Below are positions 1,772 to 8,343 of a DNA stretch of 41,500 bases, piece by piece. The notes below the pieces were generated by a model that saw nothing but the letters and a program-made list of their open reading frames with translations, was not told the DNA's origin and searched no databases. The stretch comes from a virus, in the UHGV virus genome UHGV-0377100; one strand, 5' to 3'. Positions within the stretch are counted from its first letter, which is position 1; the number at the start of each line of letters is the position of its first letter. A program made the position numbers and the translations under genes.

Positions 1772-2722
1772 ATGGAAGGAGGGCATACGTTGTCAGATAA
1801 ACAGAAAAAGCGTTATTACTGGCTTAAATTGAAAGAAAACTTTTTTGAAGAAGACACAATCGAATGGTTAGAAGAACAACCCAACGGAAAAGAGTACTGC
1901 TTAATATACCTAAAATTATGTTTGAAATCTTTAAAAACTGATGGGGTGTTAGTAAGGAACGTTGGCAGCATGTTAATCCCTTACGATGCCGAGACACTCG
2001 CTAGGGTCACAAATTCCACCGTCGACACTGTAAAAGTTGCGATGGATTTATTTAAGAAAATAGGACTAATACAGTTGCTCGATACTGGTGAAATATATAT
2101 CAATCAACTTAATGAACTAGTTGGATCTGAGACAGAAGCAGCCAAACAAAAACGCTTGCAAAGGTCAAAGGTGGACAATGTCCCTAAATTGTCCTCTGAA
2201 TGTCCTGAAAATGTCGCCCAGAGTATAGAGTTAGAGTATAGAGATAAGAGTATAGAGAAAGATAATAAAGAAGAGCCAAAGAAATCTCCTTGTAAATATT
2301 CTGACGAACATTTACGTCTTGCTCAAAAATTACAAAATAATTTAATCAATGATTTTCCGAGTGAAATGAAAAGAGTGAACATTGAAAAGTGGGCTGACAC
2401 GTTTAGGCTAATCGAAGAACGAGATCAACAAACTATTGCAGCAATTGACTATGTTCTTGATTGGTTACCGACTAATTCATTCTGGTTTGGAAACATTAGA
2501 AGTGCTTCTAAACTAAGAACACAGTTTGAAAAACTAAAATTTGAAATCAAGAATGAAAAAGAACGTGGTCAACAACGAGCGGCTTACCAACGTCAAAACG
2601 TTAGGACTGAAAATTTACCAGAATGGGCAAAAGAACCAAATAATCAGCAAGAAGAAAAGCTATCGCCAGAAGAGCAAGCTGAACTTGATAGACAAATAAA
2701 AGAATACTTGGAGGGAAAATAA
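1772..2722 (+). CDS. Phage replisome organizer (Phage_rep_org_N-type N-terminal domain with a DnaD-like C-terminal part).
   Basis: N-terminus KRYYWLKLKENFFEEDTIEWLEE..GKEYCLIYLKLCLKS is the characteristic replisome-organizer N-domain signature. It is followed by rusA. Confidence 0.7.
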   Translation: MEGGHTLSDKQKKRYYWLKLKENFFEEDTIEWLEEQPNGKEYCLIYLKLCLKSLKTDGVLVRNVGSMLIPYDAETLARVTNSTVDTVKVAMDLFKKIGLIQLLDTGEIYINQLNELVGSETEAAKQKRLQRSKVDNVPKLSSECPENVAQSIELEYRDKSIEKDNKEEPKKSPCKYSDEHLRLAQKLQNNLINDFPSEMKRVNIEKWADTFRLIEERDQQTIAAIDYVLDWLPTNSFWFGNIRSASKLRTQFEKLKFEIKNEKERGQQRAAYQRQNVRTENLPEWAKEPNNQQEEKLSPEEQAELDRQIKEYLEGK

Positions 2723-3129
2723 TGCGAATTATCCTACCAATTGAACCAAAGCCACAAAGTCGCCCGAGGTTTGCAAGGCGTGGGAATTATGTCCAAACCT
2801 ATGAAGATAGCGCTATGAGAGCCTATAAACAAAAGGTAAAAGCGTATCTACGAAAGACAAAACCAGAATTGATTGAAAAAGGGGCTATTTTTACGCATAT
2901 TACGTTTTACATCGCTGCCCCTAAATCTCTATTAAGTTCTAAAAAGAAACGCTTAGAAGTGGAATTATAGTGGAAATATTGCGATAAGAAACCTGACTTG
3001 GATAATTATTTCAAAGCAGTCACTGATGCTGCCGAAGGTATTTTATATAAAAACGATGTTTGTCAAAAGTTGTACAGTATACGACCACGAACAGAACTAG
3101 AAATTACAAGTTTGGAGGAACAAGTGTAG
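2722..3129 (+). pseudogene. rusA: RusA Holliday-junction resolvase interrupted by an in-frame amber TAG at 2968-2970. The catalytic KPDLDN motif lies downstream of the stop.
   Basis: N-terminus MRIILPIEPKPQSRPRF is a RusA signature. The same frame continues after the TAG as WKYCDKKPDLDNYFKAVTDAAEGILYKNDV... to TAG at 3127-3129. Uninterrupted length would be 135 aa, the normal RusA size. Confidence 0.65.
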
Positions 3130-4036: not shown

Positions 4037-4453
4037 TTGATTAAATTGCTAAGAGAAGTAGATTTTCGACAAACAAAAGCGAATGCCAGAAATGTGTTGA
4101 AGAACTTTAGACGTTTAGAGCGAATAGCTGGTCGCTCTTTGATAGATTTAAAATCACCAATTATTACAGATATGCCTAAAAGCCAAAGTCACGGGAATAA
4201 AGCAGAAGATTCGCTAGTACAATTAGCAGATGCAGAAGCAGAAAGAGACGCAATTTTATCTGCGCTTATGGCATTGAGCCTAACTAGCAGACAAATTTTG
4301 CATTATAGTTTCTGTGTGCAGGATCATTACTCTAATTACAAGATAGCTAGGGAAGTTGGATATTCCGAAAGAAGTATTCAACGCATGAAATCAGAAGCTT
4401 TAATTGAATTTGCTGAAGCTTATCGAAATGGAAAAATAATTGCCTATAAATAA
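4037..4453 (+). CDS. arpU: ArpU/RinA-family phage late-gene transcriptional activator.
   Basis: 138 aa. N-terminus TKANARNVLKNFRRLERIAG and C-terminal sigma-region-4-like HTH (YSERSIQRMKSEALIEF) are typical of the ArpU family. Placed upstream of the packaging genes. Confidence 0.7.
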   Translation: MIKLLREVDFRQTKANARNVLKNFRRLERIAGRSLIDLKSPIITDMPKSQSHGNKAEDSLVQLADAEAERDAILSALMALSLTSRQILHYSFCVQDHYSNYKIAREVGYSERSIQRMKSEALIEFAEAYRNGKIIAYK

Positions 4454-4457
4454 AATT

Positions 4458-4486
4458 TTGGCGGTTTTTTGGCGGAAAGTTGGCGG
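4458..4486 (+). promoter_or_regulatory. Three direct TTGGCGG repeats spaced exactly 11 bp apart, immediately downstream of the arpU stop.
   Basis: TTGGCGG at 4458, 4469 and 4480, each followed by a T/A tract. The one-helical-turn phasing suggests a protein-binding array. Confidence 0.5.
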
Positions 4487-4518
4487 TTTTTATACGAATT
4501 TGAGTGCTAATATAGTAA

Positions 4519-4592
4519 TATCGAAAGTCAAAGAAATGGACACATTACACAACGCTTTCTGGTTTAGTCACCGTTTGATTTGACTTTCGATA
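4519..4592. repeat. 14-bp perfect inverted repeat (TATCGAAAGTCAAA / TTTGACTTTCGATA) separated by 46 bp.
   Basis: Arms at 4519-4532 and 4579-4592. The motif ATATCGAAA also recurs upstream of terS. Confidence 0.5.
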
Positions 4593-4678
4593 GTCACTTG
4601 CAGACTTACGTTCTCAATAAAATGAAGTGAGGTGAATAACCTCCTCTTTTTTCTACAGGTTTGCAATGAATAACACTC

Positions 4679-4707
4679 TTGATCGAACTCTAGTTCGGGT
4701 GTATAAT
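4679..4707 (+). promoter_or_regulatory. Sigma-A type promoter with an extended -10 (TTGATC, 17 bp, TGtTATAAT) upstream of the moron cassette.
   Basis: -35 TTGATC at 4679-4684, TG at 4700-4701, -10 TATAAT at 4702-4707. A weak hairpin plus T-run terminator lies just upstream at 4629-4652. Confidence 0.5.
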
Positions 4708-4827
4708 AAGAAGTATAATCCTTATGGTTATATCTGCTAGAAAGAAGTCGAGAAAAGCACTTGTTTTTCTGACTTCTTTTTGATTTAATTAATATAGCAG
4801 GTATAAATTAAATAAGGAGTGTTACAA

Positions 4828-5742
4828 ATGAACATAGGTAATTTGAGAAATTTTATTTCAAATGTTGAAGCGGATGATAATGATAGTGTTGAAATGAAAA
4901 TGATTCAAAAAATAGGGAACGGTATATGGAGTCATACTCCACAGTTGACTATAGCGATGAGGGAAGAATTAAAAGTTTTTTACACTGAAATCCTTAATAA
5001 TAATTTTTTTGATTTAGAACAAAGTGAGTATAATCCTAATATAGTAATCGAAGGTTCACTACAAGTTTCAGATTTGACAAATGCTCACATCAATGAAGTA
5101 TTAGCTGAAATAGATCTTGAAGAAAACTGTAATGATGATATGGGAAATGTAGATTTAGATAAAATAAATTATTACAGATTTAAATTTAATTATAATGGAA
5201 ATAGTCTTTATATTTTTAGACGATTCACTAAAATGAAAAAAATTAGAAATGGTATTTTAGGTCGTTTTCAGGATAATACATTTAGAAAAATAGAGACTGA
5301 TGATTTTTTTGGAATAGATCGTGATATTGATATTTTGTTATTTGATAATGAGGCACTGATAGTCAATCGCTTTGCATTACAGACTATTTTTAAGCTTAAT
5401 GATTATTTTATTGAAAGAGCGACAACGGCGTTAAGCGAACTAGAAGAAGAAAACGTATTAGTAAATTTTGAAGACTTTAAAAATGATTGTTTAAATGATA
5501 AACTGGCAGCAAGAAGAATGACAAAAATCATTAATACCGAAGGTCGTTTGGAAGGCTTTTTACAGAATACAAGAAATTTGCCTGAGGTAATTGAACATTT
5601 TGATTTAGAAATAGAATTGAATGATAATAATCAAATCATATATAACGGAAGTAAAGAAGCACGAAGTCAGATTTTATTTTGCATATCAGATGCATATTAT
5701 CAATCGCTTATACTCCAAAGATTAGGTGAAGATCCTTCATAA
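4828..5742 (+). CDS. Hypothetical cytoplasmic protein, moron gene 1 (acidic, 305 aa).
   Basis: ORF track 4819..5742 opens with GTG. ATG at 4828 sits 8 nt after the AAGGAG RBS. No family recognised. Located in the arpU-terS moron hotspot. Confidence 0.6.
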   Translation: MNIGNLRNFISNVEADDNDSVEMKMIQKIGNGIWSHTPQLTIAMREELKVFYTEILNNNFFDLEQSEYNPNIVIEGSLQVSDLTNAHINEVLAEIDLEENCNDDMGNVDLDKINYYRFKFNYNGNSLYIFRRFTKMKKIRNGILGRFQDNTFRKIETDDFFGIDRDIDILLFDNEALIVNRFALQTIFKLNDYFIERATTALSELEEENVLVNFEDFKNDCLNDKLAARRMTKIINTEGRLEGFLQNTRNLPEVIEHFDLEIELNDNNQIIYNGSKEARSQILFCISDAYYQSLILQRLGEDPS

Positions 5743-5764
5743 ACAGAGGAAAGAGGTGAAGAGA

Positions 5765-6349
5765 ATGAGGACGATACAGAAAACATTATTTTATATGTCT
5801 TCTTTTATACCACTTTATCTGTTATTGATTGTTCAAAACTTCAAGTTCAGAAATGAATCAGGAAAATTTTCTTGGCAAACGATCTTTGATCAAATTAATT
5901 TTTCAAATAAAATTATTACATTATTTTGGATTGGCTTAATAGTCATGATTATTCTATCATTATTTGGATGTGTTATCTTTTTTAAGATTTATGGTGCAAA
6001 AGAAGGTAGAAATGGTAGCATATCAGATGCAGAATTTGTTAGAGAAGACACTATGGGGTATATTGTGACATATATAATTCCGTTGTTATCCATGGATATA
6101 ACAAGTTTGAGAAGCTTAGTAGTTAATTTACTGTTATTTATCATTATAGGGACTTTTTATGTTAAGAACGATCAGATATTTATGAACCCATTATATAATT
6201 TATTTGGGTATAATATATTTTCTGCTGAAAGTGGAATTTATATCACTAAAATATCCAAGCAAAAGTTGAAATTGTTTGCTAAAAGAGATGTAAAAGTTAA
6301 AAAGATAAATATAATGGGAGATATATACGTACTGAAAGAAAATGAATAA
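5765..6349 (+). CDS. Hypothetical 4-TM membrane protein, moron gene 2.
   Basis: ORF track 5726..6349. ATG at 5765 follows the AAGAGGTG RBS. Four hydrophobic helices (LFYMSSFIPLYLLLIV, IITLFWIGLIVMIILSLFGCVIFF, GYIVTYIIPLL, LVVNLLLFIIIGTFYV). Tightly linked to gene 1. Confidence 0.6.
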   Translation: MRTIQKTLFYMSSFIPLYLLLIVQNFKFRNESGKFSWQTIFDQINFSNKIITLFWIGLIVMIILSLFGCVIFFKIYGAKEGRNGSISDAEFVREDTMGYIVTYIIPLLSMDITSLRSLVVNLLLFIIIGTFYVKNDQIFMNPLYNLFGYNIFSAESGIYITKISKQKLKLFAKRDVKVKKINIMGDIYVLKENE

Positions 6350-6355
6350 ATTAGT

Positions 6356-6382
6356 AGCCATCGCTTATGTGGTGGCTTTTTA
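6356..6382 (+). terminator. Rho-independent terminator after the two-gene moron.
   Basis: AGCCATCGC-TTATG-TGGTGGCT followed by TTTTT. Near-identical to the terminator at 7378. Confidence 0.6.
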
Positions 6383-6410
6383 TAATGAATAATATTTTGT
6401 TTTTTTATAT

Positions 6411-6483
6411 CGGCGTGTAGCTAAATAGGTGATAGCGATTGATTTTTAATCAAGTACATGCAGGTTCGACTCCTGTCACGCCA
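6411..6483 (+). tRNA. tRNA-like gene, anticodon TTT (Lys), 73 nt, no encoded CCA.
   Basis: Manual fold: acceptor stem 6 of 7 pairs (C1 and A72 unpaired); U8; D-stem GCTA/TAGC with a GG-containing loop; anticodon stem 4 pairs plus an A-G closing mismatch; loop TTTTTAA with U33 and A37; 5-nt variable loop; T-stem GCAGG/CCTGT; T-loop TTCGACT. Confidence 0.4.
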
Positions 6484-6789
6484 ATAAGTGGCAAAACCAC
6501 TTAAATAAATTAGGAAACGTCAATAGATGTTTCTATCCTTCACGAGGAGGCATTCGCTTGTAGGATGTCTCTTTTTATATGCAAAAATACTTATAATTAA
6601 ATCATCAGAAATACATGATAGATTATAAGGAAACATAAATATCAAATTTGTAAAGCATTATATACTAAAAAGAGAATTATATATGATCACAAGTGGCACT
6701 CTAAAAGTAGAAGAAATAAAAAAAAGTAACACTATGAAAAGTACTCAACCTAAGGTAAAATAAAACAAAGATACTTTGGGGGGGTATAT

Positions 6790-7353
6790 ATGAGTTTTGT
6801 ATCGATTGCGGGTAATAAGAAATATATCAATGTCATGAGTGATGGTTTAGCAGTATATCAGGATGGGACAAGAGAAGAAAACTGGGAAAAATTTGTCAAT
6901 TACGATAATAAAAGATTTATAGCTTTCGCAGGAACCGTCCATTATTGTCAAAATGTGGTTACAGAAGCTTCTAAATATTTAGAGTTACCATACAATCAAT
7001 GGGTGAATCGGATTAAAGAATACGTCTCAAATATGCCGTATTCACAAGAAACGGGTAAAGCCATAATCTGTGTAGGTGGTAAGGATGGAACGTTAAAGTT
7101 TTCAAGTTTTTCAAATAAACCTGGGCAAAACTTTTATGATTTTGAATTAGTTGATGATAATATTCACTATGTGTTTTTAAGCAACATGGATGAAGAGGAT
7201 TTATTGGACAAAAAGTTTATGGAATTTGTAAAGAGATATCGTTCTGCTAAATCAAGAGATGTTCTGTTAGCTCAAAGAGATTTGAATAATTATGTTTCAG
7301 ATTTGAATCCAAATACTGTGAACAAAAATACTAGTTATTTTGTTTTGAAATGA
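6790..7353 (+). CDS. Hypothetical protein (187 aa), single-gene moron cassette.
   Basis: ORF with a GGGGG RBS. No recognisable family. Has its own upstream AT-rich promoter region and its own terminator. Confidence 0.6.
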   Translation: MSFVSIAGNKKYINVMSDGLAVYQDGTREENWEKFVNYDNKRFIAFAGTVHYCQNVVTEASKYLELPYNQWVNRIKEYVSNMPYSQETGKAIICVGGKDGTLKFSSFSNKPGQNFYDFELVDDNIHYVFLSNMDEEDLLDKKFMEFVKRYRSAKSRDVLLAQRDLNNYVSDLNPNTVNKNTSYFVLK

Positions 7354-7377
7354 TAGCTATTATTTTATTAAATTGAA

Positions 7378-7403
7378 AGTCATCGTTTATACGGTGGCTT
7401 TTT
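7378..7403 (+). terminator. Rho-independent terminator after moron gene 3, a near-copy of the terminator at 6356.
   Basis: AGTCATCG-TTTATA-CGGTGGCT (two G-U pairs) followed by TTTTT. Confidence 0.6.
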
Positions 7404-7410
7404 CATATAC

Positions 7411-7441
7411 AAAAAAACCGCTAATATCGAAAAATTAGCGG
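7411..7441 (-). terminator. Opposite-strand hairpin with a U-run on the minus strand (CCGCTAAT-ATCGAAAA-ATTAGCGG, preceded by A7 on the plus strand).
   Basis: Perfect 8-bp stem. Acts as a bidirectional insulator together with the terminator at 7378. Confidence 0.45.
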
Positions 7442-7539
7442 ATAGGAAGTTATAGTAAGACTTGTTGAAAGAATTATGATAGGTAAATATCGAAAACAAA
7501 ACTCAACCATTTAGATGAAAAGTGAGGTGGTGTTAATGG

Positions 7540-8343
7540 ATGGCTAGAAAAAGAGATCCACGTCGTGACCAGGCTAAAGAAATTTGGTTAAAGTCAAACG
7601 GCAAAAAGGTTCTTAAAGAATTAGCTAATGAACTAAATGTTTCGGATTCTCAAATAAGGAAATGGAAATCTATAGATAAATGGGCTGATGAATTAAAAGG
7701 TAATGTTACCAATTCAAAAAGTAACGTTACCAATAAAGGTGGAGCGCCGCCTGGGAACAAAAATGCTATAGGTAACAAAGGAAATAAAACTGCCTCACCG
7801 CCAAAAAGAAATAAGAATGCGGTAAAAACAGGCGAATATGAAACAATATTTGCCGATATGTTATCTGACGAAGAAAAGGACATCTATTCTACAATGAATG
7901 ATGATCCTTTTTTTATTTTGGAGGAAGAAATAAGAATCCTAAAAATTCGTCAATATAGAATGCTTAAACGCATCAAAGATGCAGAGGTTGACTTAAACGA
8001 TGAAGAAGTTGAACGTTTGCAGCAGCTTCGGAAAGTCAAAGAGCCATCGGTGATTGATGGAAAAATGGTCACTGTCAAGAGAGAAGTTTTAAAAGATGTG
8101 CAAGTAACTCGTAAAACATTTAGAAAACTAGATGACATTTTGGCTATTGAGGAAGCATTGACAAGAATTAGCAATCAGTTAACAAAGGCTATTAAGCAAC
8201 AGAATGCCTTGCTAGCAAATGATGCCAAATTACAATTATTGAAGGTTCAAACTGAAAAAGTTAAAGCTAGTTTAGATGCTACAAATGGAGACATGGATAT
8301 GCCAGTTTTCATCGATGATATATCAGGTGATGAATATGAGTAA
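7540..8343 (+). CDS. terS: Terminase small subunit with an N-terminal HTH.
   Basis: MARKRDPRRDQAKEIWLKSNGKKVLKELANELNVSDSQIRKWK is a TerS-type HTH. Gly/Asn/Lys-rich linker. Overlaps terL by 8 nt. Confidence 0.7.
   Translation: MARKRDPRRDQAKEIWLKSNGKKVLKELANELNVSDSQIRKWKSIDKWADELKGNVTNSKSNVTNKGGAPPGNKNAIGNKGNKTASPPKRNKNAVKTGEYETIFADMLSDEEKDIYSTMNDDPFFILEEEIRILKIRQYRMLKRIKDAEVDLNDEEVERLQQLRKVKEPSVIDGKMVTVKREVLKDVQVTRKTFRKLDDILAIEEALTRISNQLTKAIKQQNALLANDAKLQLLKVQTEKVKASLDATNGDMDMPVFIDDISGDEYE

Follow-up and report, generated by a model that had tools for sequence, protein, structure and literature searches.

The closest described relatives of the locus reported here are Kiwa anti-phage systems. 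In Escherichia coli (O55:H7 RM12579 and ECOR49; structures 9mrg, 9mrr, 9mrx, 9mtn, 9nyu and 9o0i), Kiwa likewise consists of two genes, with KwaA as the membrane sensor and KwaB as a DNA-binding effector (PMC11785009). The system is activated from outside through phage tail fibres, KwaB stays at the membrane, and phage yield is lowered while most infected cells survive at a multiplicity of infection (MOI) of 10 (PMC11785009). Kiwa is common near prophages: ~197 of the ~1,260 dereplicated loci analysed co-localise with them (PMC11785009). A second precedent comes from Streptococcus thermophilus 90730, a host in the Lactobacillales, whose PADLOC-detected system (St90730_688/689; 1553 bp, compared with 1522 bp here) is listed as "Kiwa (kwaB, kwaA)" (PMC11514479). 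When cloned, it cut plaquing of the lactococcal phages sk1 and c2 by 4-5 logs (PMC11514479). Here we describe a Kiwa locus in UHGV virus genome UHGV-0377100, a 41,500-nucleotide stretch (the window) that belongs to a temperate phage or prophage of Enterococcus faecalis, of the phiFL1A/SEsuP-1 (phiFL-like) type. With a probability of about 0.88, we read positions ~4667-6392 as a self-contained mobile cassette of a divergent Firmicute Kiwa subfamily, with kwaB followed by kwaA, in the arpU-terS moron slot of this prophage.

A first-pass annotation, made from the sequence alone, had noted two co-oriented genes at this position, one for an acidic cytoplasmic protein and one for a four-helix membrane protein, and had recognised a family for neither. 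The two genes are there as described (the first encodes 304 residues plus a stop, counted then as 305), but both proteins match Kiwa models from end to end, and public annotation already lists KwaB and KwaA Pfam hits for these exact sequences. KwaB scored 111.9 bits against Pfam PF16162 (KwaB/DUF4868; cut-off 26.3 bits, E = 4.7e-32) and matched 12 PADLOC models, the best of which, PDLC00231, covered residues 1-303 with E = 4.3e-123. KwaA matched 14 PADLOC models (best PDLC00208, E = 7.6e-75, residues 1-194), its precomputed annotation is Pfam PF28043 KwaA, and a phmmer search of the PDB returned the KwaA chains of 9mrg and 9o0i at E = 4e-6. For kwaA we preferred the ATG at 5765, which is preceded by AGAGGTG, to the GTG at 5726, because alignments to the family models begin at residue 1.

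For KwaB, phmmer with the single sequence gave no meaningful PDB match, and a family profile reached the KwaB chain 9o0i_H at only E = 0.025; hence a fold comparison, which had been suggested earlier for both proteins, was needed. An AlphaFold (AF2) model of KwaB, built on 34 homologues, had a predicted local distance difference test (pLDDT) score of 84.4. When this model was compared with the PDB by Foldseek, ranks 1-6 were all KwaB (9mtn, 9nyu, 9mrx_D), with E values of 1.8e-10 to 3e-9, probability 1.00 and ~300 aligned columns; the next match had E = 1e-2. Its layout, an N-terminal alpha/beta (Rossmann-like) domain followed by a helical C-terminal DUF4868/KwaB domain, is that of solved KwaB. 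The AF2 model of KwaA (pLDDT 83) has long helices at residues 2-25, 49-76, 96-108 and 115-134 and six beta strands, and its fold-search ranks 1-7 were all KwaA, with TM-scores of 0.57-0.72. This architecture agrees with the published protomer, in which four transmembrane helices are accompanied by a cytoplasmic beta-barrel formed from intracellular loop 1 (ICL1) and the C terminus (PMC11785009). We conclude from both sequence and fold that the pair are homologous to Kiwa.

The first-pass annotation had suspected a superficial resemblance to Kiwa and had held the reversed gene order against it. The resemblance is real homology, as the Pfam, PADLOC, PDB and fold matches show, and the order is no objection. 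E. coli Kiwa runs kwaA-kwaB, whereas kwaB precedes kwaA in every relative that we examined, namely in Enterococcus dongliensis, E. faecium, E. hirae, a metagenomic relative (73% identity) and several viral contigs. The kwaB-then-kwaA order is therefore the norm in this Firmicute subfamily. It is also the order of the S. thermophilus system, and because that system is active, Kiwa in this arrangement is already proven to work (PMC11514479). We liken the two by description; the streptococcal system is not prophage-borne but part of a CRISPR-associated defence island on the chromosome, and it was expressed from a constitutive plasmid promoter. In our cassette the genes lie on the same strand, 22 nucleotides apart, between one promoter and one terminator. 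Both folds are shared with the E. coli proteins, a four-helix KwaA with a cytoplasmic beta domain and a two-domain KwaB with DUF4868 at its C terminus. The cassette differs from E. coli Kiwa in its Gram-positive host without RecBCD, in its strongly acidic KwaB (pI 4.5) and in its own SOS-box promoter and structured leader, which the E. coli paper does not describe (PMC11785009).

The cassette lies between genes for an ArpU-family regulator and a small terminase subunit, as first placed (Table 1). When 4.4 kb around it were searched, all matches were to Enterococcus phages, at 84-95% identity, and fell in the flanks only. Homology shared with phiFL1A, phiFL2A and SEsuP-1 ends at 4666, ~10 bases before the -35 element, and starts again at 6458 or at 7468-7486; in those phages the slot holds other genes or almost nothing. 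The GC content of the cassette is 25-29%, versus 33-36% for the flanks. Its relatives follow arpU in some phages and in others directly follow an Amidase_2 or GH25 endolysin gene at the prophage end. A comparison of presence and absence in related prophages had been proposed, and it revealed a mobile cassette: it is present, absent or relocated among otherwise syntenic prophages. We found no flanking direct repeats of the kind that would suggest site-specific insertion. Since homology with the cassette-less phages stops at 4666, the promoter is part of the inserted unit, and because those three phages also lack the leader, the mobile unit comprises leader, cargo and terminator. The separate terminator claimed for the cassette was found; terminator-like sites numbered 5 against 1.0 expected, and this one accompanies the 73%-identical cassette in L011.

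Identical KwaB occurs in 497 blocks of a public assembly collection, widespread in E. faecalis, and each contig that we read had the same prophage context; contexts of relatives were taken from exact-protein look-ups. At the DNA level the cassette had no counterpart among deposited phage genomes, which contain only distant KwaB homologues, in Clostridioides difficile and Mammaliicoccus phages. Relatives at 47-73% identity retain both genes, which argues for purifying selection. The variable slot and the Kiwa homology favour the earlier proposal of a defence moron, a role predicted here from sequence. Prophage-borne Kiwa is common in the clinically important E. faecalis and could limit phage therapy. 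Exchange of defence cargos at a fixed position in syntenic phages is also known from the P2/P4 hotspots (PMC9122126), and a conserved promoter region with a changing gene behind it from the TERi locus of Listeria comK prophages (10.1101/2025.02.27.640495). The phages, slots and sequences there are unlike those here, where the slots follow arpU or the endolysin gene, and the conserved element here adds to the promoter an operator resembling an SOS box and a leader of structured RNA. In kind, the cassette is already known: it is ordinary Kiwa, detectable with standard tools and with an active precedent in the same order. The cassette itself adds little, and the conserved leader may be its sole new element.

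Table 1. Positions of the cassette, its upstream control elements and its neighbours in the window
Feature	Position	Strand	Details
Cassette promoter	4679-4707	+	-35 TTGATC (4679-4684), 17-nt spacer, -10 TATAAT (4702-4707); 10/12 matches
Palindrome GAACTCTAGTTC	4685-4696		within promoter spacer; fits GAAC-N4-GTTC SOS/LexA (Cheo) box
Structured 5' leader	4713-4827	+	anti-Shine-Dalgarno (anti-SD), P1, P2, T-run and Shine-Dalgarno (SD), in that order
Anti-SD CCTTAT	4720-4725	+	
Helix P1, 5' strand TTATATCTGCTA	4728-4739	+	
Hairpin P2	4741-4779	+	T-run 4777-4781
Helix P1, 3' strand TAGCAGGTATAA	4795-4806	+	
SD AAGGAG (of kwaB)	4814-4819	+	closes leader
kwaB (ORF1)	4828-5742	+	304 aa plus stop; isoelectric point (pI) 4.53; no hydrophobic segment
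kwaA (ORF2)	5765-6349	+	194 aa; pI 9.5; four transmembrane helices
Intrinsic terminator, cassette end	6356-6382	+	stem 6356-6377 plus T-run; 9-bp stem with 5 GC pairs, then TTTTT
ArpU-family late regulator	4037-4453		upstream flank; TIGR01637, E = 4.6e-39
tRNA-Lys(UUU)	6410-6485		downstream of cassette
Small terminase TerS	7540-8343		downstream flank; NF040601, E = 3e-80

The cassette had been credited with its own extended -10 promoter. A promoter is present where it was placed, but it lacks the TG motif and is not a canonical extended -10 promoter. Promoter-like matches in this AT-rich stretch are at chance level (21, with 19.0 expected); what supports this one is that its position is conserved in the leaders of homologous cassettes. 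Its spacer contains a palindrome that, with its flanks, reads CGAACTCTAGTTCG (4684-4697). The Gram-positive LexA operator consensus is GAAC-N4-GTTC (PMC4234289; PMC11442139, which gives the S. aureus form CGAACAAATGTTCG), and GAACTCTAGTTC is the sole site of that form in the window. A GAAC/AAAC-N4-GTTC/GTTT box lies at the promoter in all 44 distinct aligned leaders, with the arms kept and the central N4 varying. From its sequence, the palindrome is a putative LexA-type operator overlapping the promoter.

The region from the promoter to the start of kwaB is conserved among kwaB-kwaA cassettes of differing species and slots. We collected its family in two pattern scans of viral contigs and with nhmmer, which together gave 64 hits (one of them in the window) and 44 distinct sequences; of the 56 viral-contig pattern hits, we discarded 14 that matched by chance and had no leader. 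Besides the window, the family comprises loci L004, L011-L019, L021-L026, L028-L031, L035-L036, L038-L039, L041, L043-L046, L048-L053, L056-L057, L059-L060, L062-L065, L067-L069, L071-L072, L074-L076, L078-L080, L082-L083 and L087-L088. The window leader has a minimum free energy (MFE) of -42 kcal/mol (z = -7.5), and a covariance model matches it at 4713-4808 with 91 bits. Across the 42 hits aligned to the covariance model, 91% of cells were paired, compared with 47-59% when partners were slid, although this alignment is fitted to the model and hence leans towards it. Both sides had changed in 12 of the 23 base pairs, a count that 0 of 500 shuffles reached. Helix P1 spans the terminator formed by P2 and its T-run, with strand-specific G-U wobbles and with compensatory pairs, three in the E. 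hirae locus L016 and one in L025. The MFE fold pairs the cargo SD with RNA nucleotides 9-13 in 37 of the 44 members. Pairing between a cargo's ribosome-binding site (RBS) and its own 5' segment was stronger than with permuted partners (-7.58 vs -6.48 +/- 0.24 kcal/mol; 0 of 2000 permutations). At the 5' end, ATAATC/GATTAT could form an alternative hairpin with the anti-SD in its loop; apparent compensatory changes, judged by eye, occur in L016 and L087.

When Rfam 15, including its abiF motif, was searched with the window leader (4713-4827), no match reached E <= 5, and elsewhere in the window there were only the tRNA and one weak chance match. The leaders of L045 and L035 gave only sub-threshold chance matches to Rfam, well below gathering scores (Plastid-psbM, E = 0.086; mir-627, E = 1.3-2.2). 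An assignment to the abiF motif was dropped, the Rfam matches being far below threshold. Nor did we find a description of this promoter-leader element in the searchable literature. The nearest parallel in logic is lactococcal abiD1, where a promoter yields a short, 50-nucleotide terminated transcript 5' of the gene, and rare read-through and an RBS sequestered in secondary structure keep the gene near silent until a phage protein activates its translation (PMC2661086). There a local hairpin sequesters the RBS, whereas here a helix enclosing the terminator would do so; for abiD1 no SOS box is reported, the activator is phage Orf1 or cold, and one gene is served, while the leader here serves many cargos. 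The predicted leader family, which conservation and covariation support, may be a new element.

Members of this ~135-nucleotide promoter-leader family (4676-4827 in the window) precede at least 10 cargo types in two slots, after arpU and after the endolysin gene, at a nearly constant distance from the start codon. Leader sequence types track the slot, one being found after arpU and the other after endolysin; the endolysin-slot type had no match in the deposited phage collection. The cargos include Kiwa variants (KwaB identity 23-60%), PDC-M67A/B (DUF6731), a HipA-like kinase related to PDC-M66A, an NA37-like protein, a weakly KwaB-like 335-residue protein with a KwaA-like partner, and several proteins of 306-338 residues without a family. 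Since most second genes encode small multi-transmembrane proteins, many of these pairs share the Kiwa architecture. Among them, L022:1865-3481, L024:1265-2854, L026:4985-6383, L049:5364-6875 and similar loci pair a soluble protein of 306-335 residues with a multi-transmembrane protein of 150-205 residues. These cargos belong to PDC-M67 (DUF6731) or to no family or, in L022, have a KwaA-like protein and a KwaB match under the Pfam cut-off. Such cargos may point to a wider Kiwa-like superfamily. Some phage genomes carry two leader copies each, with different cargos (L029 and L044 in IMGVR_UViG_647000243_000001; L018 and L075 in IMGVR_UViG_2860422191_000001); such a genome can have a 318-residue protein without known function at one site and Kiwa at the other.

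In the Enterococcus phage vB_ElaS_B1578, arpU is followed by the leader and gp56, an unannotated gene for 313 residues, that is, by a different cargo in the same slot behind the same leader. A record named "Acinetobacter phage D2SVT" (PQ554527.1; hits H31 and H35) matched the enterococcal leader with identity and coverage equal to those of vB_ElaS_B1578, on the opposite strand and at almost identical coordinates; this record may be mislabelled or contaminated.

Perhaps, then, the promoter-leader (4676-4827) belongs to an undescribed portable expression-control module that unites an SOS-box promoter with an intrinsic terminator and a terminator-enclosing anti-SD helix. Such a module would label exchangeable defence cassettes in both moron slots of the temperate phages that infect Enterococcus and related hosts. 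We offer this tentatively and put it at somewhat under even odds. If it is true, the module ties expression of defence cargos to the host SOS response, and "guilt by leader" nominates unannotated cargos (306-350 residues, often with small multi-transmembrane partners) as anti-phage genes. A real leader would also be a handle on how prophages silence potentially harmful defence genes and a sequence bait for new ones.

The conserved element might instead not act as an mRNA leader in cis. It could be the gene for a small RNA of ~65 nucleotides, running from promoter to terminator, with a separate promoter for the cargo, or it could be mainly shared DNA that anchors homologous recombination for cargo swaps. 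For a small RNA speak the hairpin and U-run right after the promoter, which should end most transcripts, and a candidate cargo promoter with -35 TTGATT in the T-run and -10 TATAAA overlapping 4802-4807; a -35/-10-like pair with 16-nucleotide spacing is visible by eye in most members. The loop and flanks are conserved beyond what a terminator needs, conservation stops exactly at the cargo start, and the Listeria comK prophages offer a documented locus where cargos alternate behind a conserved promoter (10.1101/2025.02.27.640495). However, helix P1 links the two sides of the terminator, with its double changes in L016 and L025 and its wobbles, and pairing with the cargo RBS weakens when the 5' segments are permuted. 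These covariation and pairing results need a transcript that spans the terminator. Both versions are, moreover, compatible with leader function. We consider it unlikely that the element has no such function.

How would the Kiwa cassette work? By homology with E. coli Kiwa (PMC11785009), KwaA tetramers and KwaB dimers would form a membrane complex or array, which would sense how phage attachment or DNA ejection disturbs the membrane, a trigger from outside. KwaB, through its DUF4868 domain, would bind the incoming DNA, stall its replication and block late gene expression, and the cell would survive. Because the trigger is external, a resident prophage should neither trigger nor suffer from its own Kiwa on induction. 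Low basal expression would be ensured by a predicted triple lock: the LexA-type operator, the intrinsic terminator before kwaB, and the long-range helix hiding the kwaB RBS.

The first-pass annotation had envisaged abortive infection instead, with the soluble protein as sensor and the four-helix protein permeabilising the membrane and killing the infected cell. The KwaA tetramer is indeed an hourglass with a channel-like shape, for which a gated-channel role has been noted as possible (PMC11785009), the S. thermophilus paper counts Kiwa among systems linked to abortive infection (PMC11514479), and the subfamily here is divergent. In E. coli, however, the roles are the reverse: activation comes from outside, KwaB binds DNA at the membrane, and since cells survive even at an MOI of 10, Kiwa there is not abortive infection (PMC11785009). 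Our KwaB subfamily also keeps an invariant basic motif (F130 R131 R132 K135 K138 R140), and R132 and R140 align opposite E. coli N134 and R142, which contact DNA, although this profile alignment is weak (E = 0.025, 14% identity) and offsets from PDB tags are possible. The alignment is a faint hint of a shared mechanism. Altogether we regard an abortive mechanism as very improbable.

Enterococci have a Gram-positive envelope and AddAB instead of RecBCD. For this reason the published RecBCD/Gam interplay may not apply to them, the first of several points that weigh against reading the cassette as a working Kiwa system of the E. coli kind. Identity to the solved E. coli KwaA and KwaB is only ~14-18%, and superposition of the KwaB model on solved KwaB gave a TM-score of only ~0.5, which may reflect a differing arrangement of the two domains. 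KwaB scored 33.6 bits against an NCBIfam equivalog cut-off of 200 (NF041623) and KwaA 91.4 bits against a cut-off of 100 (NF041622). By these scores the cassette is no equivalog of the E. coli type but belongs to a divergent subfamily, and mechanistic details may therefore differ. Because of the same cut-offs KwaA is publicly named "hypothetical protein" and close KwaB relatives are "KwaB-like domain-containing". The anti-phage role of this enterococcal cassette is a prediction, as are LexA binding, termination and SD sequestration, and a LexA-repressed, terminator-attenuated promoter fits poorly with a membrane sensor that is needed before infection. That the cassette is an inactive remnant or serves another role, such as lysogenic conversion, is the least probable reading of all: the scores under the equivalog cut-offs would allow it, but both reading frames are intact with full-length subfamily matches, identical KwaB recurs in the same prophage context in the contigs read from its 497 blocks, relatives at 47-73% identity keep both genes, and the same-order S. 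thermophilus system is active (PMC11514479).

The arpU-terS slot showed further variation around the cassette. The identity of its tRNA varies by phage: Lys(UUU) in the window, Arg(ACG) in phiFL2A, Asn(GTT) in SEsuP-1 and Trp(CCA) in L035/L071 (coordinates in relatives: L003:3547-3621, L001:2179-2251 and L035:929-1000). The tRNA gene lies upstream of the leader cassette in some phages and downstream in others; in L004, L078 and L080 a tRNA-like gene immediately precedes the leader. Downstream of the tRNA, an ORF at 6790-7353 encodes 187 residues with no detectable family and is restricted to enterococci; a Proteasome family match at E = 0.15 was noise and was rejected. The terminator 3' of it (7369-7403) is an 80% copy of the Kiwa terminator (6347-6381), and ORF and terminator together look like a second cargo module in the slot.

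Three direct TTGGCGG repeats lie directly 3' of the arpU stop (4455-4491), within the stretch conserved with other phiFL phages, and an inverted copy lies inside the hairpin CCGCTAATTTTTCGATATTAGCGG just 5' of terS (7412-7441); these may be binding sites of the late activator or sites related to packaging. Between arpU and the cassette, within sequence common to the cassette-less phages, a perfect 14-nucleotide inverted repeat, TATCGAAAGTCAAA / TTTGACTTTCGATA, encloses a 46-nucleotide loop (4519-4592). Further upstream, RusA is split in the window (2722-3129) into ORFs of 82 (2722-2970) and 43 residues (2998-3129). The near-identical prophages L007-L009 carry an intact RusA of 135 residues, so the window copy is probably a premature-stop or frameshift variant.

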